From: Candidatus Bathyarchaeota archaeon
Lineage (GTDB): Archaea; Thermoproteota; Bathyarchaeia; Bathyarchaeales; Bathycorpusculaceae
Assembly: GCA_963827165.1 (NCBI GenBank)
Contig: CAWGZR010000008.1
Location: 1-49,798 of the forward strand
Reading direction: 5' to 3'
DNA length: 49,798 nt
The notes beneath the pieces were generated by a model. The model was not told the DNA's origin. It saw nothing but the letters and a program-made list of their open reading frames with translations, and ran no database searches. The position numbers were made by a program, and so were the translations under genes. This document shows, piece by piece, positions 5,016 to 49,765 of the stretch. Position 1 is the stretch's first letter. Every line of letters begins with the position of its first letter.

Positions 5016-5807
5016 CTAAACTGGGTTGTCTGCGGGATTTTTGGGTTTCAAGAGCTCTTGCAATGTTTTGTGGCATTTGCTGCATGCAAACATTGCGTTC
5101 CCGCATGAAGGACAATACAACTCATGCTTTTGCAGGCGACTCAGAAGAGTCAACAACTCAGCGACGTTTTGGGTGTCACGGGGGCTCTGCTGTTTCTCAA
5201 CGGGCTCAGCAGCTTCTTTTCCAAGTAGCGCATTTTCGCTGGATTTTATTTCGCTATAAACTTTTGCTATGCTCGCTTTTCCCTCACGTAGCTTCTGCTT
5301 TTCGTCTTCACTGGCTTTCTCAAGTATCGTTTTTCCCCGCTCAAAAGTTCGGGTTGAAACACCAGCCTTCCTTGCCACCACTTCAGTTGCCTTAGACTTA
5401 AGCTCTGGCTCAGCGGCATCTGACGCTAACCCCAACTGCAAGTCTCGGCCATCCCTGCCGCCCTTAACCTGCCGCTTCTTTGCAAGCGCTTTTTCAATCT
5501 CCAGCAAGGGCACAGCCAACTCTACGAGCTGGAAATTGTTGAGGTGACGACGCCTAAGGTTTGCCTCTATAACGAATTTTTTCTCAAGCAGCTTATCCTC
5601 AAACCTGCGGACCTCAAAATCTGGTTCTATGCCCAGTTCAGTACAGGCTTGGAACCTGTGATGCCCATCTAAAACTTCAAGATCTTCGTTTACAATGATT
5701 GGGTAATGCTGACCTTCCGATTCTATGGAAGCTTTCAGCTCGGCGAATTCTTCCTCAGACATCTTAGGCAACAGTTTGCTATACTCAGGGTTCAAATGCA
5801 AGCTCAT
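5016..5807 (-). CDS. ParB/Srx N-terminal domain protein with HTH and C-terminal CxxC-x6-CxxC
   Basis: LKASIESEGQHYPIIV, LDGHHRFQAC, NLRRRHL, VARKAGVSTRTFER (HTH), CPSC...CSKC. Confidence 0.8.
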   Translation of the reverse strand: MSLHLNPEYSKLLPKMSEEEFAELKASIESEGQHYPIIVNEDLEVLDGHHRFQACTELGIEPDFEVRRFEDKLLEKKFVIEANLRRRHLNNFQLVELAVPLLEIEKALAKKRQVKGGRDGRDLQLGLASDAAEPELKSKATEVVARKAGVSTRTFERGKTILEKASEDEKQKLREGKASIAKVYSEIKSSENALLGKEAAEPVEKQQSPRDTQNVAELLTLLSRLQKHELYCPSCGNAMFACSKCHKTLQELLKPKNPADNPV

Positions 5808-7116: not shown

Positions 7117-7335
7117 CTATCTTAGAAGTTTTTGAAATTCCGCTTTTGTTATACCGGCCTCTTCTATTATCGCCATAAGCAATCCTTTCTTTATTTGCTC
7201 ATGTTTTGGAACCGGAACAATACGCTCGTCTTTTACAAGAATCAAATGGCTACCTTTTTGCCTAGCTACTTGAAAACCTGCCTTAGTTAGAGCTTTAACA
7301 ACTTCACGCCATGAGAGCAGAGGGAGCTTCGACAA
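7117..7335 (-). CDS. hicA: HicA family toxin (mRNA interferase)
   Basis: LSWREVVKALTKAGF, RQKGSH (catalytic His), VPVPKH, GLLMAII. Confidence 0.92.
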   Translation of the reverse strand: MSKLPLLSWREVVKALTKAGFQVARQKGSHLILVKDERIVPVPKHEQIKKGLLMAIIEEAGITKAEFQKLLR

Positions 7336-7537
7336 TTACTTCAGCCTTTTCACCTTTAGTTCTATTTCCCAGAAGTTCTGCTTTGGCCTCCAGATAACCT
7401 TCGATGGCCTCTTTGATGTTGGCTAAAGCTTCTTTTTTCGTTTCTCCTTGACTTGCAACTGGAAGCTCCAAACATTTAACCACAAAGCCGCCTTCCTCAG
7501 CTTGTTCAAGCAAAACGGTAAATTTACGAGCAACCAT
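7304..7537 (-). CDS. hicB: Short HicB family antitoxin (no DNA-binding domain)
   Basis: EEGGFVVKCLELPVASQGETKKEALANIKEAIEGYLE; overlaps hicA. Confidence 0.9.
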   Translation of the reverse strand: MVARKFTVLLEQAEEGGFVVKCLELPVASQGETKKEALANIKEAIEGYLEAKAELLGNRTKGEKAEVIVEAPSALMA

Positions 7538-7836
7538 ACATGATCTCACTTATGCTTTATTTCGTTCTTGCATATATACAAGTTACTATGTATTGACAGA
7601 GCGCCTGCCCAATATAGCAACTTTGACTAGGCGTGAACAGAACGCAAGCTTAAATGTTCAACCACAATCGTCAAGTGCAAAAGTCGCAATCCACCCAACT
7701 AAAAGGCTACCCAAAACACAAACAGAAAAATCGGCTGAGGGTGAAATATCACCTCACGACTTATGTCTGACACTTGCGTGTTGGGTGATAAGCCTTTAGT
7801 AATAGTTTGTTCATTGACGTAACATAGGGTGGGTTC

Positions 7837-8049
7837 ATGAAATTCGGTGTTGTTGTTGAGAAAGATGAAGACGGATACTACGTTGCTTCAGTTCCGGAGT
7901 TGCCGGGTTGCCATACCCAAGCTAAAACCCTCGATGAGGTTATGAAAAGAATCAAGGAGGCCATTGAGGCATGTTTGAATGTCGAGGGATTAAAAAGTCA
8001 GGGACGCACCGAGCTTGTCGGGGTTCAATTCGTCGAGGTCCAATCCTAA
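7837..8049 (+). CDS. hicB: Short HicB family antitoxin (second copy)
   Basis: DEDGYYVASVPELPGCHTQAKTLDEVMKRIKEAI. Confidence 0.92.
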   Translation: MKFGVVVEKDEDGYYVASVPELPGCHTQAKTLDEVMKRIKEAIEACLNVEGLKSQGRTELVGVQFVEVQS

Positions 8050-8271
8050 ATGAGTTTAAAGCCTTTACCGCCTCAAAAAGTGATTAAAGCTCTATCGAAA
8101 TTGGGTTTTAAAATTGTACGAAACATGGCAGTCACGTCGTTCTCAAGCATCCAGATGGCAGGTTAACTGTTGTTCCCGTTCATCCTAGGGAAAATATAGG
8201 AATAGGGCGGCTGAATAAAATAATCAAAGATACTGGAATTATCAAAAGAGGAATTTTTATCGGCACTTTAG
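8050..8271 (+). pseudogene. hicA: HicA family toxin, frameshifted (~8122 and probably ~8238); absent from the ORF track
   Basis: ATG directly after the hicB stop: MSLKPLPPQKVIKALSKLGFKIVR, then shifted frame HGSHVVLKHPDGRLTVVPVH...IIKDTG, then LSKEEFLSAL* back in the original frame. Confidence 0.85.
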
Positions 8272-8430
8272 GAGCACCAGACCGCCTAAGCTGAGGGGAA
8301 GCAAATTGTGTCCTATTCTTGGGAAAATAATTTTCTCAAGAATTTTGACTGGGGTTTCATTAGGCTATGGGTCTTGTTTTGGATCTGTGGGTTGTCTAAT
8401 ATTGTCTTAGGCGCATAAAAGTTTCTGATG

Positions 8431-8613: not shown

Positions 8614-8686
8614 TTTTGGTATGTTTTGAGATGTTTTGGGATGATTGTTGCAACCAAATCAATTCCCAAACCAGAAAACCAACCCA
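8614..8686 (+). repeat. 73-bp dispersed repeat, copy 1
   Basis: 57/73 identical without gaps (hand count) to 13467..13539; internal TTTGGG/CCCAAA stem. Confidence 0.8.
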
Positions 8687-8952
8687 TTTCACAAACAAAA
8701 AAAAATTCTCGAAGCAGCAGCTTTCACCAAACCAAAAGTCTCACCTAAGAACTTCAAAGAAAGTCTCATTTTGAAGAAACCACTGTAGAAAAGCAAAGAG
8801 CTGCGTGAATCGGTGAACCATAAGTATTATTAGATTGATTGTACCTAAATTGTATCAAATTAACAAGAAATTAAAATCTCATTATAGCGAGAATACGCTC
8901 GCTTTATGTGATTAACAAATAATCAATAGTAAATCATTAGGAGTGCATATTT

Positions 8953-10128
8953 ACGGGAACATCCCAGACCTTTACGATTAAGTACGTTGTACTTGCTAGA
9001 TTCGAAATAGAAGGTGTTGTAGAAAAACCCGATGTGATCGGCGCAGTTTTCGGGCAAACAGAAGGACTTTTTGGACCCGAACTTGACCTACGCGAACTGC
9101 AAAAGACAGGACGCATCGGACGAATCGAAATCGACCTCCACTCAAAAAACGACCACACCACAGGTGCAATAACCATACCCACAAGCCTCGACAGAGTTTC
9201 AACAGCGCTAATTGCCGCAAGCATCGAAAGCATAAACCGCGTCGGCCCATGCTCCGCCAAAGTCAGCCTAGAAAAAATCGAAGACATACGAGAAGCACGA
9301 CGAAAAATCATAATTGATCGCGCCAAAGAAATCCTACACAAATGGAACATCGAATCGATGCCAAGCGTCGAAGACGTATACAAAGAAATCTCAGACACCA
9401 TGAAAGTAGGCAAAGTGGAGAAATACGGTCCAGAAGACCTACCAGCTGGTCCAGGATTAGACGCAGCCAAAGAAATCATAGTTGTAGAAGGGCGAGCAGA
9501 CATAATCAATTTGATGCGTTGCGGAATCTTCAACACCGTAGCTCTTGAAGGCGCCAAAGTTCCAGAATCAATAAAGAAACTCACCAAAGAAAAAAGCGCC
9601 ACTGCACTGCTTGACGGCGACAGAGGCGGCGACCTAATACTAAAAGAGCTCCTGCAAGTCACGAACATAAAATATGTCGGTCGCGCACCCCGGGGCAAAG
9701 AAATCGAGGAATGCAACTGCAAAGAGGTAAACGAAGCTCTAGAAAACAGAGTCCCAATTGCAGAAGCAGCAGGCAAACCACAGCCGCCAGCACCAACACC
9801 AAAAAAGATCCCCGAACCCGTCAAAATCGAGGTTCCAGAACCAGTCGCCCAAGCCGCAAAAACACTACAAGGAACACTTGAAGCCATTTTGCTAAACGAA
9901 AAACTCGAGCAGGTTGAACGTTTACCTGTAGCCCAACTGGCAGAGAAACTCCAGCAGGTTACAGGCATTGAAACAGTTGTCTTCGACGGCATCATCACAC
10001 AGAGAATCGTTGACATAGCCGGCGAGAAAAACATCAGACGCATCGTTGCCTCAAGAATCTCCGAAGCAGTAAAACCAGCCTTAAATGTTGAATTGGTAAC
10101 TTTCCAAGAGGCCGTTCCAGCAGCTTAA
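8953..10128 (+). CDS. dnaG: Archaeal DnaG-like primase (Toprim; exosome-associated in archaea)
   Basis: KYVVLARFEIEGVVEKPDVIGAVFGQTEGL, DLRELQKTGRIGRI, IVVEGRAD, LLDGDRGG, FDGIITQR; conserved N-terminus extends upstream of GTG 9034, start tentatively ACG 8953. Confidence 0.93.
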   Translation, partial: TGTSQTFTIKYVVLARFEIEGVVEKPDVIGAVFGQTEGLFGPELDLRELQKTGRIGRIEIDLHSKNDHTTGAITIPTSLDRVSTALIAASIESINRVGPCSAKVSLEKIEDIREARRKIIIDRAKEILHKWNIESMPSVEDVYKEISDTMKVGKVEKYGPEDLPAGPGLDAAKEIIVVEGRADIINLMRCGIFNTVALEGAKVPESIKKLTKEKSATALLDGDRGGDLILKELLQVTNIKYVGRAPRGKEIEECNCKEVNEALENRVPIAEAAGKPQPPAPTPKKIPEPVKIEVPEPVAQAAKTLQGTLEAILLNEKLEQVERLPVAQLAEKLQQVTGIETVVFDGIITQRIVDIAGEKNIRRIVASRISEAVKPALNVELVTFQEAVPAA

Positions 10129-12522
10129 AAATAATCCGTTAAGCTCTTGATTTCCTTAGCTTCTTTCTTTTCTCCAGAAGCCAGTTGTTTTTCTTTCACC
10201 CCGAAAAACGAAAGTATCCGAGCCGCTGCAGGAACCACTTGGTTATTTATGTAGTAATCGACATCTACCTCATCATACTTCGCGAAGACATAGGGCTTGA
10301 CACGGCTATAGAATCGTCCGGTGCCAGACAAGATGACAAAACCTACTTTGTCGCCGCCAGCCAGCCGCCAACCTTTTTCCTTAAGCATTTTCGCAGCCTC
10401 AACATGCGGAGACCGAATAGCATATCGTTCCGGTGGCTTAGTTAGGGTCTTCCAAATTATGAGGTCTCGGAAAGGAACCGTTCTGTTTTGGAGTTCAGCC
10501 ACCATTTTATGCACATATTCGACAGCGTTCTTCGCGGATTTTTCCCGAAGGATTATTCCAAGCACATTCTCCTGCACATCTTTAGCTACCTGAGCCCAAT
10601 CTCCCCGCACAACTTCTAACCCAACAATGTCCAAGCTGCCGTCTGCCCTCAAACCAGCATACCTTTTTTTAGCTTCCGTGAAGAAGACACGTTTGTAAAC
10701 CTCGCTTACTTCAACCTCAAGACCCAGTTCTTTGCCTATTTCCTTTTGTAGCTCAAGCAGGTTCTTTTCGTCATTAGTTAAGAATAAGCTGTCTGTGTCG
10801 CCGTAAATGACTGTTAAGCCTTTGCTTTCAACCATTTTGGACGCAGTAAGAATCGTGTATCTGCCCCATGCTGAAGCTGCCTCAGCCACAGGTTTGATGT
10901 ACCATCTTGCGCCAGTCCACCCCGCGTACCCGTAAGCTGCGTTCGTTATGACTTTCACAGCTTTTTGCCTCGCATCCAAAACGCTGAATTCCACTGTGCC
11001 GGAGTGTAATGCCTTCATCTGAACCCTAATTTGGCTCCTGACCTGTATCAGAAAAATCAAAGCTTCCTTGTAAAACCCTGGCGGTTCTTTTCGAAATCTA
11101 TGGTTTACTTCTGGCGCTTGATACACCCCGCCTTTAGGTTCCGGCGCTTGTGGAGGAACGTAGGTGTCAGGGGACAGATTGTATCTTATCATTATGTTTG
11201 GGTACATTGATTTGAAATCTAACACCGCTATGTCGTCGTGCAAGCCAGGCTTCGGCTTTAGCACAAGCCCGCCAGCATAGGGCCTGTAAGGCTGCTCAAC
11301 CCGTCTTGGGACCAGCTCGCCGATTTTGCGTGTCTGCTTAATCAGGAACCATTCCACCCGAAAGCCAACTGCCGCAGTCATCACGTGGTCAAGCGGCAAA
11401 CTAACCAAACTCGAAAGCTCCACCGCAAAATCCAGCAGCAACAGGGAGGCGCCTTGAATTTTGCGAGCGTTGTTGAGGCTGAACAGTTTAAGCTGCTCCC
11501 TCTTATGCGGGGCATCCCAGTAATCGGCAAAGTCTACATCTTCAATTTCGCGTCCTGAAGCATCTTTTGTAGCGCCGAGGTGATCGAGCTAGATTGGCAA
11601 GGGTTTGAACTTTCACTTCGGGAAAAACATCCATGAAGTCGGCGAGGTCAACGTTAGCTACGCCTGTGAAGGACACGTGGCCGTAAACGCTTGTATGTGG
11701 TTCTTTCTTCGCTCGGTCAACGTCGAATGTTCTCTGCAGCCGGCGACTACGCTTCGTAAGGTAATCCCAATGTTTTGAGTTGCCGCCGAAACTCAGGATG
11801 ATGTCGGGATCAAATCGGCACACGTAGTCAACGAACTGCTCAATGAGGGGTTTGTCGTCTCTGTCTTCATCTGCCAGGAACTGTTTTTCTTCGCCGTTGC
11901 TTGCGGAAGTAGATATTATCACTACTGGGTTTCTCTCTGGTTTTGGCGATCCTTCACGACTGTAGCTTACCATCGAGAAACTTAAGGTTCGGAGGCTCGG
12001 TTTCTCAAGACCGTCAAGCTGTTTCGGAGAAGAGCATGCAGCATAAACTTTGTCGACTCTCACTTTAGGCGCAGCTTGCTCTTCCTCAGCCTCCACTTCA
12101 AGCCAGGTGCTCGGGGACACCTCGTTATCAATCAGGTACTGCATTGGAACGCGAATATCATCTTCGAGGCAATCCTCCACTTCTTTTAGACCGCGAAGTT
12201 GCCGCGCAAGCTTCCCCGCCTCATTCGCAGCCTTGCAATATACTTTTATTGCCTGCACAGGTTTGCCGAAGAAGCGACGTTCCAGAACCTCGGTCTTCAC
12301 GATTGATCCTTGACATACATTGATGATTTCCTTTTCAATCGAGAGGGGATAAAATCCTTCTTTCACCACAACGTAAAAGTAAGCAGCGAAGTTTCTGTCA
12401 ATAACCAGTACCCTGTTTCCATGTGTGTCAATCCCCCAAAGCCACAATTCAACAGGTTTCCCCTCCACGGATCGGGGATTAATGTCCAGCATCCAAAACT
12501 TGATTTTCAAAGGCCTCGCCAT
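10125..12522 (-). CDS. polB: Family B DNA polymerase (PolB3-like) with degenerate proofreading motifs; one frameshift at ~11587
   Basis: DFKSMYP, RQKAVKVITNAAYGY, YGDTDS, KKRYAG, C-terminal PIP-like KSLTDYF; ORFs 11542..12522 and 10125..11441 join via LANLADHLG...YWDAPHKR. Confidence 0.92.
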
Positions 12523-13004
12523 TAGAAACTAGATGCTTTAATCCTTTAAACTTTCAACATATGCCTTCATCTTACGCTTCTAAAGTAGTTAGCTTTCGGT
12601 TGAGGTAAACGGATCTTTCTGGCGCAATTTTTTTTCGTATTTTTTTTATTCTTTTCTAGATGGTTCTATATGTAACCTACAGCTAAATCAAACCCGAATT
12701 TAACAAGCTTTTCTTTGATAATTTGGTTCAATTTAGAAATTCAACGATTATTCCCTGCTTAGAAGAAAGTAAAGTTGGTCTCATGAATTTTGCATTCATA
12801 AAGCTTTAAAGATAAATTCTGTTCTTCTTGAATTGGGTTCAGAGGGAAATGCAGTTGATGGTTCGCCATCACATTTTGCATATTCCGCACAACTCTGAAC
12901 CCGCCCTGCAATTACATAAAATCTAGGGAGTTAGCAGTTTAGCAATATCGCTTTCCTTGTCGTATATCCATCTATTTGCTTCGGAAATTCAAAGCACTGA
13001 AAGT

Positions 13005-13466: not shown

Positions 13467-13539
13467 TTTTGGTACGTTTCGAGATGTTTTGGGCGACTAG
13501 TTGAAACTAATCCGAGACCCAAACCAAAAAAGCAACCCA
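13467..13539 (+). repeat. 73-bp dispersed repeat, copy 2
   Basis: Same orientation as 8614..8686; TTTTGGT/ACCAAAA and TTTGGG/CCCAAA arms. Confidence 0.8.
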
Positions 13540-13667
13540 AACCGCCTTGTTCAATAACGCCATACAAAAAATTTCGCTCCACAAAAGACGCCAGCACTAT
13601 TACACAGAACCTCGCTGCAAAATCGTTAGTTTTAAGTTGATGCCTGAGAGTTATTTTTTGAAGTTTT

Positions 13668-15714: not shown

Positions 15715-16227
15715 CTAAATTCTAATTTTTGCCCGGACTCTGGGCACAATTTCCTTCTGCGCCTGCGCAATGCCATACGCGGTTATCCTGAACTTTTCTT
15801 CAGGCGTTTTCGCCAACACCCCATTCTTCACCAACTCGCCCAGCCGCGTGCTAACTATCTTTGCACTTTTCCCAAGCTTTGTCTGCAACTCCTCCTTTGA
15901 CACAGCGTCACTACCCAACATGCCGAGTTCGTGCCCCAAATATTGAGCCGTCAACCAAATCGACAACGCCTCGTTATCCGTCAACTTATTTTTTGGCGCC
16001 ATTAAACTTGCCCCGTCGCCTGAAAACGCAACCAACCCGTCCAGGTCTCTGGCAAGCTGCTTAAGGTCAACGTTTAGCCAAAGTTTGCGTGCAATATCAA
16101 AGCTTGGAATGAACTCTTTAAAAAACTGATTTAGCAGAAGCCAAGCTTCCTGAGGTTCAGCTGAAAACCCCTGCGAAATGTCTCTGTATTTGATTTGGAT
16201 CTGGATTTTCTCTGGTTTTTCGCTCAA
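15715..16227 (-). CDS. Hypothetical protein with C-terminal winged-helix; paralogue of 16224..16712
   Basis: SKEELQTKLGKSAKIVSTRLGELVKNG...FRITAYG wHTH pattern. Confidence 0.75.
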   Translation of the reverse strand: MSEKPEKIQIQIKYRDISQGFSAEPQEAWLLLNQFFKEFIPSFDIARKLWLNVDLKQLARDLDGLVAFSGDGASLMAPKNKLTDNEALSIWLTAQYLGHELGMLGSDAVSKEELQTKLGKSAKIVSTRLGELVKNGVLAKTPEEKFRITAYGIAQAQKEIVPRVRAKIRI

Positions 16228-16712
16228 GCCATCTTGCCTCGAAGCTTCGTTAAGACCTCGTCTTCAACCCATTTCTCGCCCTGAATCGTCAGCTTAAAAT
16301 CGGGTTTGTTCGGGTCAGGCTTGAAAACTTGCCCGCGCTTAGTCATCTCGTTAAGTCTTGCGGGAACCATGCTTTTTATGCCGCTGGACTCCAAAAGTCT
16401 CTGAATCTGCGCCGCCGTGTTCTTCCGCTCTGTAGAAGCGTACATAACCAACCCCACCGCCTCGTAATGTGTCAGGTTTTCCCGCGTCACAATCACGGGT
16501 CCTTCAGTGGTGGCTTCAATAATGCCTTTAAGCTGCGCCCCAGACGGCGTCAACCGATCAGAAACAAAATCCGAAAGCTTCTCCACAAAATTCTCAGGAA
16601 TAAGCCCCAGCATATCCAGAATCTCCTGCGGGTTCTCCCCTTCAATAATAACTTCCCCGAAAGGAGTTTTAATCTTAGCCTCAATGCGCTTCAACAAGTT
16701 AGCCTCTTTCAT
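16224..16712 (-). CDS. Hypothetical protein with C-terminal winged-helix; paralogue of 15715..16227
   Basis: TAAQIQRLLESSG...VPARLNEMTKRG...FKLTIQG; 4-nt overlap with the downstream gene. Confidence 0.75.
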   Translation of the reverse strand: MKEANLLKRIEAKIKTPFGEVIIEGENPQEILDMLGLIPENFVEKLSDFVSDRLTPSGAQLKGIIEATTEGPVIVTRENLTHYEAVGLVMYASTERKNTAAQIQRLLESSGIKSMVPARLNEMTKRGQVFKPDPNKPDFKLTIQGEKWVEDEVLTKLRGKMA

Positions 16713-40427: not shown

Positions 40428-43327
<2,900 letters not shown>

Positions 43328-48543: not shown

Positions 48544-49520
48544 TTAAGTATTCGGAAGCAGAGCTAACCTGCCTATATGGTGTGAGTTTACGGCTTCGAA
48601 TGCGTCCACCACCTGATCAAGCTTGAAGGTCTTGTCAAGATGTACCTCGAATGCACCGGCTTCGACCAGTTTGTTGAGCTTATTCACAAAATCTCGATTT
48701 GTGTTGCCCATGTAGCCATTTAGGCGGACGTTAGATGGTGCCTTTGGAGCTGGCCTGATGTTATTTATCCAAGGGTACGCCACTCGTCCTCCTTCGCGAA
48801 TGGTAATTAGTGCTTTTTCGGATGCCTCGATCGCTCCAGGAGTCTGTGCAGAAACTGTTATCAGGGCTGCGTCAAAACCAGTGGGGGCAAACTCGCGTGC
48901 TGAAACAACTATATCTCCATTATGCCCATCGACCGCAGCTTCGGCGCCCAACTTTAGGGCAAGCTCTACTCCGTCTTTCCCTGACGCTACCGCAAACACC
49001 CGTGCCCCGAGTCGTTTAGCGAGTTGTATTGCTAAATGCCCCATGCCACCGCTCGCGCCAAAGATCATAAGTTTTTCGTCATGCTTCAGAGAGAGTGCGT
49101 CTAACCCTGTTAGTGCAGTCGCTCCGTCGATCAGCAAGGCTCCTGCCTGCTTTGTCGTTACCGTAGATGGAATTGGCCATGCATTCTCAGCCTTTAGAGA
49201 GGTGTAATCAGCGTAAAATCCTGCCTTTGGATTTGTCGCCCATACACCGCCATAAACCCGATCGCCATTCCGAAACTCGCTGACTTTGTCTCCGACACCC
49301 ACAATCTTACCGGCACCCTCTAACCTAGTATCCAGGGGAACTTGGGTTGAACTCCGGATCTCCGTGCAAGAAACCCCTCACGTTCTGCGGCATCCCATAT
49401 CGCGATTCCGGCTGATTCGACCTGGATTAGAATCTGCTCTGGCTCAGGTTCGGGGACGGAAACGTTCCTTACTGATAGGACTTCAGGACCGCCGAAGCGA
49501 TCTATAGTTACAGCGTGCAT
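48544..49520 (-). CDS. MDR-superfamily NADP-dependent (quinone) oxidoreductase, frameshift at ~49322
   Basis: MHAVTIDRFGGPEVL, FPWILG/EGAGKIVGVGDKV across the shift, GFYADY, FGASGGMG, GRLAL. Confidence 0.88.
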
Positions 49521-49765
49521 CTCGTTGTTTTTAGGCAAGAGTTTCTTCACCGACTTACTTTGCAACACATCGATCTTTATATTTATTCGTTGATCCGTGT
49601 AACCAAAATTTAAAAAATTGCGTCGATTTCGCCAAACTTGAAGGGGGGGCTCATACCTGTGCGATAAGTCCCGTCCGATCCGTCGCTAATGAAAAACGAA
49701 CTTGAAAGCAGCAGTCACTTTTTTAAATTACGCGCATTTTTCGCGTGGAATTTAAACTAGGGCGT

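Follow-up and report, generated by a model that had tools for sequence, protein, structure and literature searches.

Archaeal PolB3 is usually treated as the proofreading, 'major' DNA polymerase of the cell, and dead exonuclease domains have been ascribed to PolB2. Whether this picture holds throughout the PolB3 family is the question raised by the chromosomal polB3 gene of a Candidatus Bathyarchaeota archaeon (GenBank assembly GCA_963827165.1, contig CAWGZR010000008.1), which lies on a stretch of 49,798 nucleotides (nt), the window of this analysis. An initial annotation, made from the letters of the window alone, had read the gene product as a PolB3-like polymerase with all three proofreading motifs substituted and an intact polymerase site. 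A whole PolB3 branch is found to depart from the usual picture. Judging from the alignments, two fidelity devices, proofreading and the recognition of template uracil, have been lost together in PolB3 lineages that also possess PolD and PolB1, a combination whose components and general pattern have precedents. Proofreading has very probably been lost in the PolB3 of this window, and that the enzyme is at once exonuclease-dead and polymerase-active is a conclusion in which we place high confidence. Papers given below by PMC identifier are cited for those parts of their text that were accessible.

Exonuclease motifs, polymerase site and uracil pocket

Two-metal exonuclease catalysis needs four carboxylates. 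When PolB3 of Pyrobaculum calidifontis (structure 5mdn) is aligned with an intact-frame relative of the present enzyme, AFDIEVY stands against SFSMISY, GYNSNGFDWPYL against SFGANAQDWDYL, and YVLDD against FSLNN; as the motifs align to those of 5mdn, the positions are homologous, and it is the catalytic residues that have changed. All motifs quoted in the initial annotation were recovered on the minus strand within the gene (Table 1), and this copy retains 0/4 of the carboxylates. Sequencing noise was considered as the cause of the changes and discarded, since the loss recurs across close homologues and across the class. In three overlapping sets of 120, 29 and 80 close homologues, two of the 80 not covering ExoI, an ExoI Asp or Glu was found in 0/120, 0/29 and 0/80 and the ExoIII Asp in 1/120, 0/29 and 2/80. 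ExoI likewise reads DxE in none of 62 class-level (Bathyarchaeia) orthologues, a count from which the non-orthologous rows L172, L175 and L176 are omitted. The ExoII Asp is retained in 99/120, 26/29 and 67/80 of the same homologues, so that the ExoII His of this copy is a local change. The statement that all three motifs are substituted is therefore correct for this copy and does not extend to the clade, in which the ExoII Asp mostly survives.

A 108-row set, less 21 outgroup or unplaced rows (those of genomes G248, G223 and G230 and an odd PolB of G073 among them), yields 66 rows of the branch to which the enzyme belongs, hereafter the dead clade, and 21 rows of its sister group of crenarchaeal-type PolB3. 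All four carboxylates are kept in 21/21 sister enzymes, whereas the dead clade keeps none in 17 rows, one in 48 and two in a single row; the ExoII Asp is present in 39/66, and the former catalytic positions vary freely. With no carboxylate in this copy and at most one of four in 65/66 members of the clade, the earlier description of a non-proofreading enzyme is well supported. The polymerase site presents the opposite picture. The motif A Asp, the Lys, Asn and Tyr of motif B and both motif C Asp residues are present in 66/66 dead-clade rows, and the steric-gate Tyr in 65/66, so the intact site noted in this copy is a property of the clade.

The exonuclease domain itself has been preserved. Pfam matches to the two open reading frames (ORFs) of the gene include PF03104 (E 7.6e-18) and PF00136 (E 8.8e-62). 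The model of the intact-frame relative P0004 has a predicted local distance difference test (pLDDT) value of 91.2 and superposes on 5mdn with a template-modelling (TM) score of 0.87 and a Z of 40.1 over 750 residues at 44% identity; the exonuclease domain keeps its fold in it despite the lost carboxylates, and Pfam and the model together account for the full PolB domain set (N-terminal, exonuclease, palm/fingers and thumb). The conserved exonuclease-domain segment PHTSVYGHVSFTG is one which we take, by homology, to be the beta-hairpin region. Median ratios of nonsynonymous to synonymous substitution (dN/dS), from 106 pairs at 23 loci, are 0.097 for the exonuclease domain, 0.07 for palm and fingers, 0.14 for the N-terminal domain and 0.09 gene-wide, indicating purifying selection on the gene, the dead exonuclease domain included.

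A further cluster of residues conserved without exception in the intact enzymes and lost from the dead ones falls in the uracil pocket of the N-terminal domain. By the residue list of PMC2241895, Y7, P36, P90, V93, R97, F116 and R119 of the Pyrococcus furiosus (Pfu) enzyme correspond to P16, A47, A99, A102, A106, V125 and Q128 in this copy, and the equivalents of Y37, E111, D113, I114 and D123 are kept. The full set of seven scored pocket residues is found in 21/21 intact enzymes and in 0/66 dead ones; this copy scores 0/7, and Arg97 is absent from 66/66 rows of the dead clade. The enzyme is thus likely to be uracil-blind, that is, not to stall at uracil in the template.

Phylogenetic placement and companion polymerases

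The best sequence match of a relative is P. calidifontis PolB (5mdn, E 1.7e-208), which is also its best fold match, and the named homologues are Bathyarchaeia. Identity to PolB1 of the same genome is about 30% (at most 30%). The annotation as PolB3 rather than PolB2 has held: a PolB2 identity was tried and rejected on the intact YGDTDS motif, on an identity of 24-29% to the PolB2 that the same genome encodes elsewhere (contig C4), and on the placement among the B3 enzymes. In the B3 tree the dead enzymes group together as a single branch, whose sister is the intact PolB3 of Thermoprotei and Nezhaarchaeales. The branch has a support of 100 in fasttree and of 96 by the Shimodaira-Hasegawa-like approximate likelihood-ratio test (SH-aLRT) of IQ-TREE; removal of the N-terminal and exonuclease columns gives 94 (not starred). 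The dead-clade rows already form one side of a branch, and branches are longer within the clade. Source names in the branch are Bathyarchaeia, Aigarchaeota (Ca. Geocrenenecus) and other Nitrososphaeria, and the few members labelled Thermoprotei, Thermoplasmata or bacterial may reflect misbinning or transfer.

Outside the class, a sample of 40 PolB3 from the phylum contains 21 with four carboxylates, 16 of the dead group, one degenerate and unplaced (G248), and two (G223 and G230) that are degenerate, fall within the intact branch and have altered polymerase motifs; the degeneration of these two is an event separate from the dead clade. Taken together, the alignments and the tree indicate a single loss of the carboxylates and of the uracil pocket, on the stem lineage of the PolB3 branch that comprises Bathyarchaeia, Aigarchaeota and related lineages.

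Several other sequences deserve mention beside this tree. L219 (G248:C2:129128-131251) is a long-branch PolB3-like gene with a dead ExoI from a genome with PolD, where it lies in AT-rich surroundings (24% G+C), and is put outside the main dead clade by fasttree. L172 (G073:C137:1674-4178) encodes, on a 4 kb contig from a genome of the Bathyarchaeia, a PolB with an intact exonuclease at 27-30% identity; it is not an orthologue and is attributable to contamination or transfer. P0169, P0166 and P0182 (Thermoplasmatota labels), with P0173 and P0188, make up a second group of PolB with degenerate exonuclease motifs, in the euryarchaeal-type B3 branch, which retains mostly intact polymerase motifs and represents a separate, independent loss of proofreading. 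P0137, a Korarchaeota-labelled PolB3 located beside the crenarchaeal and dead clades, has an apparently altered V93/R97 segment and keeps four carboxylates.

Besides PolB3, the same genome encodes PolB1 with intact Exo motifs, PolB2, DP1 with intact motifs, DP2, two PolY, one PCNA, UDG and NucS, so the non-proofreading enzyme envisaged at the outset does coexist with an exonuclease-proficient PolB and with PolD. The PolD subunit DP2 was found in 34/35 Bathyarchaeia and 15/16 other dead-clade genomes (the miss being a 77% complete genome), and in 0/21 genomes with intact PolB3. PolB1 was found in 61/64 genomes searched, among them 50/53 whose PolB3 is dead or degenerate, and 30/30 of the PolB1 sequences fetched have intact exonuclease motifs; PolB1 and PolD are the likely replicases of these lineages.

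PolB3 was found in 47/67 Bathyarchaeia genomes that are at least 90% complete; it was not found in the other 20/67, which include whole families, nor in three families of the phylum (0/20, 0/15 and 0/7), and its absence from Thaumarchaeota is already known (PMC4104785). PolB3 is therefore a dispensable enzyme, which several sub-lineages have lost anew. PolY occurs in 16/46 Bathyarchaeia genomes with PolB3 and 7/20 without it (Fisher p 1.0), and PolB2 likewise in 16/46 and 7/20, the PolB2 search having used one query protein at E 1e-60, which may miss distant copies. As there is no complementarity with either, the idea of PolB3 as a stand-in for PolY or PolB2 was dropped. Eleven of the 20 genomes without PolB3, all at least 92% complete, yielded none of PolB3, PolB2 and PolY (G030, G052, G057, G063, G079, G097, G106, G111, G115, G123 and G134), and these may possess only PolB1 and PolD.

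Reading frame, locus and neighbouring genes

In the assembly, polB3 is broken into ORFs 12522-11542 and 11588-10125 (minus strand) by a single +1 frameshift. The break is an assembly error, because the contigs of runs X1 (depth 13.9/13.9) and X3 (2.1/2.1) have one base fewer at the site; X3 is shallow, X1 may be the source sample, and runs X2 and X9 have no contig spanning it. Close relatives are uninterrupted single ORFs of about 795 residues. A pseudogene or a programmed frameshift was rejected on the same two runs and on the differing sites of the breaks in relatives. Such breaks are confined to one assembly series, whose 37 records contain 15 of them in polB3 and 2 in dnaG, the 43 other records having none; in this genome, 5/81 tested loci have a broken frame. 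Three further genes of the window appear split, probably by the same indel noise: an Obg-like GTPase (702-1954, minus), a 2-oxoacid ferredoxin oxidoreductase alpha/gamma (41380-43327, minus) and a zinc dehydrogenase (48544-49568, minus).

Table 1. Features of the polB3 locus, with positions counted in the window
Feature	Position	Strand	Remarks
polB3 gene	10125..12522	-	About 799 codons, one-base assembly error discounted; family-B DNA polymerase, predicted exonuclease-dead
Extra base splitting polB3 in the assembly	11586..11586	.	Missing from contigs of two runs
Promoter-like element AAAGTTTAAAG	12544..12556	-	Putative TFB recognition element (BRE) and TATA; TATA 28 nt upstream of ATG
N-terminal domain with decayed uracil pocket	12127..12489	-	Pocket residues as in PMC2241895
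ExoI LSFSMVSY	11962..11985	-	Catalytic D and E replaced by S183 and V185
ExoII SFGGNSKHWDYL	11758..11793	-	N replaced by G; catalytic D replaced by H251 (D kept in most relatives)
Conserved exonuclease-domain segment PHTSVYGHVSFTG	11662..11700	-	Second-position His typical of dead clade (94%)
EIEDVDF segment	11529..11549	-	Only acid newly conserved in the dead exonuclease domain
ExoIII LFSLNNAR	11463..11486	-	Y replaced by F; catalytic D replaced by N
Motif A DFKSMYP	11199..11219	-	Catalytic D and steric-gate Y intact
Motif B KVITNAAYG	10929..10955	-	Intact
Motif C YGDTDS	10788..10805	-	Both aspartates intact
PIP-like tail IKSLTDYF	10128..10151	-	No canonical Gln (I-K-S-L-T-D-Y-F)
dnaG (Toprim primase-type gene)	8941..10128	+	Convergent with polB3; stop codons overlap

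An equivalent of the promoter-like element AAAGTTTAAAG precedes most polB3 orthologues. In the 110 nt upstream of the orthologues, inspected by eye and with no motif search run, only this TATA-like element was seen and no damage-response operator. An identical 248-nt contig of a metatranscriptome run covers 10499-10746; because RNA libraries can contain DNA, it is taken as a weak hint of polB3 expression.

The convergent dnaG-polB3 pair recurs in 79/81 loci, dnaG being the only constant neighbour of polB3, and it is a known context of crenarchaeal polB3 (PMC4104785). A functional coupling or operon of the two genes was ruled out; since they are convergent and the arrangement is common to exonuclease-intact crenarchaeal polB3, the pairing is treated as inherited synteny. 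No radA-like or PPB2 gene was found among the 45 commonest neighbour clusters of the 81 loci or, by Pfam, in the window, and no exonuclease gene is a constant neighbour in these loci.

Other features of the neighbourhood may be listed briefly. A ParB-N-like gene lies at 5016-5807 (minus), and a homologue is found beyond dnaG in 44/81 loci. The dnaG-polB3 pair is flanked by an intergenic dispersed repeat (8614-8640 and 13467-13493) whose 27 nt core was matched in none of 100 shuffles; contigs C5, C9 and C14 carry longer copies that include tandem 10-nt units, and many loose contig ends occur around 13505-13541. Three small ORFs at 7304-7549 (minus), 7828-8049 (plus) and 8112-8294 (plus) resemble, by eye, HicB antitoxins and a HicA fragment. 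At 15715-16712 (minus), two adjoining unannotated ORFs of 170 and 162 aa have C-termini that look winged-helix-like by eye and gave no Pfam match.

Role of the enzyme and relation to known polymerases

What a polymerase of this kind may do in the cell is best explained by a dispensable, PCNA-recruited, gap-filling and strand-displacing function, a reading that we regard as somewhat on the probable side. With two proofreading replicases (PolD and PolB1) present, PolB3 would no longer have been needed for bulk replication and would have persisted in an accessory role. Its C-terminal tail would bring it to PCNA, and it would fill short gaps and displace the downstream strand in Okazaki fragment finishing after PolD and in excision-repair synthesis. 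In such short-tract synthesis, proofreading and uracil stalling would matter little or might even hinder, and the dead exonuclease domain would persist as a structural, DNA-binding module of an active, DNA-specific polymerase without proofreading and probably without uracil stalling. The gap-filling role is proposed because Thermococcus PolB fills the gaps that PolD leaves and displaces the downstream strand (PMC4432273; PMC13136892), and because loss of PolB3 renders Sulfolobus sensitive to 4-nitroquinoline 1-oxide (4-NQO) (PMC8100216). Thermococcus PolB is dispensable, and an exonuclease-minus D141A/E143A allele of it is tolerated (PMC13136892).

The recruitment step was explored by modelling. 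The tail does contain the KSLTDYF reported in the initial annotation as a PCNA-interacting peptide (PIP)-like motif, although the canonical Gln is missing. PCNA modelled with the tail scored 0.56, the best of three controls reaching 0.02, with contacts agreeing at no less than 94% and a partner pLDDT of at least 46. In calibration, the mark was reached by 51/78 solved and 2/108 mismatched pairs, and scores of 0.60 or below comprised only 5/78 solved pairs and all 4 passing mismatches; moreover, the pass may be memory, because PIP-PCNA complexes have already been solved. The model therefore lends weak support to PCNA recruitment through the C-terminal tail.

Several observations weigh against this account. 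A loose PIP pattern is found in 26/66 dead enzymes (one row ending in masked residues) as opposed to 18/21 intact ones, which means that recruitment to PCNA does not extend to every member. At position 93, Val has mostly given way to other hydrophobic residues (of 66 rows, 24 have L, 11 V and 9 I), and Y37, E111 and D113 of the pocket persist in the dead clade; uracil blindness is for that reason something that we infer. PolB1 itself could do the Okazaki finishing. The co-occurrence of PolD with dead PolB3 is one evolutionary event, which means that it does not count as statistical evidence. Within the one assembly series, frame breaks affect polB3 more often than dnaG (p 0.045). The Korarchaeota-labelled P0137 keeps all its carboxylates, and hence a set of three polymerases permits the loss and does not force it. 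Korarchaeum has PolD. PolB1 and PolB3 are also present in it (PMC4104785).

A dedicated lesion-bypass or mutator polymerase, which would read through or extend past damage in the manner of PolB2 and Pol zeta, is an unlikely alternative to gap filling. Both brakes, proofreading and uracil stalling, have been lost together, PolB2 and Pol zeta with their dead exonuclease domains act as extenders (PMC11791011), the 4-NQO sensitivity of the Sulfolobus mutant fits too (PMC8100216), and neither PolY nor PolB2 was seen in 23/46 Bathyarchaeia genomes with PolB3. Yet PolY and PolB2 show no complementarity with PolB3, 11/20 PolB3-less genomes are also without both, the locus has convergent dnaG as its only constant neighbour and no radA-like or PPB2 gene, the polymerase site is canonical, unlike that of PolB2, and two PolY and a PolB2 are already at hand in this genome. 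Of the roles put forward in the initial annotation, gap filling consequently fits best, and lesion bypass and mutagenesis are so far unsupported, with no PolB2-type operon in evidence. A relic is quite unlikely as well: on this view PolB3, under relaxed selection after PolD and PolB1 had taken over replication, shed its fidelity modules neutrally and lingers as a redundant backup with no specialised job, destined for loss. Absence from 20/67 good Bathyarchaeia genomes and three families of the phylum, matching that from Thaumarchaeota (PMC4104785), the free variation of the former catalytic positions, the longer branches and the often eroded PIP tail would all be expected of a relic; a gene-wide dN/dS of 0.09, catalytic residues in 66/66, a conserved promoter, no frame break in the 43 records outside one assembly series and retention across the class would not. 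The loss of exonuclease and pocket may have been neutral; the protein is clearly maintained.

Two further explanations are considered very improbable. One is a Pol-alpha-like primer extender that lengthens DnaG or PriSL primers before hand-off to PolD or PolB1. Pol alpha likewise has an inactivated exonuclease domain (PMC7544198), and polB3 adjoins dnaG in nearly all loci, but that link is convergent, is common to exonuclease-intact crenarchaeal polB3 and has been lost in many dead-clade genomes; the C-terminal zinc domain is absent, the gene is dispensable in many genomes, and RNA primers are poorly extended by Thermococcus PolB (PMC4432273). The other is hidden proofreading, by an active site rebuilt from the ExoII Asp and a new acid or by an exonuclease in trans. 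Judged from the alignments, the only candidate for a relocated acid is the D/E of the EIEDVDF segment, which is found in 56/66 dead-clade rows at a position that is aromatic or Gly in most intact enzymes and lies in the loop before the ExoIII helix; with the ExoII Asp in 39/66 and the fold of the domain kept, it makes such a site conceivable. Against it, this copy is without even the ExoII Asp, one or two acids at most remain in the clade, no exonuclease gene is a constant neighbour, the new acid opens a helix in the model of a relative and may be an N-cap, and D141A/E143A alone kills the exonuclease of Thermococcus PolB (PMC13136892).

Among characterised enzymes, crenarchaeal PolB3 (P. calidifontis, 5mdn) shares with this one the domain order, the canonical polymerase motifs, the C-terminal PIP-like tail and the convergent dnaG. 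In the present enzyme, by contrast, the ExoI D/E and the ExoIII Y/D are gone and Y7, P90, V93, R97, F116 and R119 are unconserved, and the dead type stands beside PolD and PolB1, whereas the sampled genomes with intact PolB3 are without PolD. The Thermococcales PolB (Pfu, KOD, Tgo and 9N; B3) has the same fold (TM 0.8, about 30% identity), coexists with PolD and is dispensable, and, where gap filling and strand displacement are concerned, is the best functional model (PMC4432273; PMC13136892); it differs in that it proofreads, stalls at uracil and is the sole PolB of its cell. The PolB3 described here resembles a natural form of the laboratory exonuclease-minus, uracil-tolerant mutants of that enzyme. 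Archaeal PolB2/Dpo2 is also a family-B enzyme with a dead exonuclease domain and a patchy distribution, but most of its members do not have the first Asp of motif C, its exonuclease domain is decayed, and it lies beside inactive RadA and PPB2 genes (PMC7544198; PMC11791011), while this PolB3 has DTD, a full-size conserved exonuclease domain and no RadA or PPB2 neighbours. Sulfolobales Dpo3 is a non-essential PolB3 beside PolB1 with a part in the damage response (PMC8100216); the presumed Dpo3-type rows G223 and G230 differ in lying inside the intact clade, with altered polymerase motifs and without PolD. Eukaryotic Pol alpha and Pol zeta are active family-B enzymes with an inactivated exonuclease domain (PMC7544198), but they belong to another clade (E 1e-44 or weaker), are multi-subunit and have a C-terminal metal-binding domain that is absent here, so the likeness is one of analogy only.

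PolB2, Pol alpha and Pol zeta are the known exonuclease-dead family-B enzymes (PMC7544198; PMC11791011). In a 2020 survey, 'Bathy' appears nowhere in the main text, and exonuclease-dead Bathyarchaeota sequences are entered in its Table S2 as 'PolBmain', with no comment on them in the accessible parts (PMC7544198). A 2014 review ascribes inactivation, in the sections available, to PolB2 only (PMC4104785), and exonuclease-dead PolB3 is not mentioned in those of PMC12680538. No description of exonuclease-dead PolB3 in these lineages was found in the literature covered, subscription papers and survey figures lying outside it, and the clade is apparently undescribed in print.

A more far-reaching possibility, which we put forward tentatively and regard as rather less than probable, is that selection has turned this ancient PolB3 branch into a naturally exonuclease-minus and uracil-blind enzyme, specialised for lagging-strand finishing or damage-tolerant fill-in within a three-polymerase replisome of PolD, PolB1 and PolB3. 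If so, the archaeal branch would parallel Pol alpha and Pol zeta in their loss of proofreading, would supply the step hitherto missing before ammonia-oxidising archaea lost PolB3, and could yield polymerases that are thermostable and tolerate uracil by nature. The branch belongs to abundant archaea of sediment and soil, in which both fidelity devices appear to have been lost around a canonical polymerase site. It offers a testable case of the division of labour among three archaeal polymerases, the dead PolB3 may represent an intermediate before Thaumarchaeota lost PolB3, and its hot-spring members may serve as natural exonuclease-minus, uracil-tolerant enzymes.

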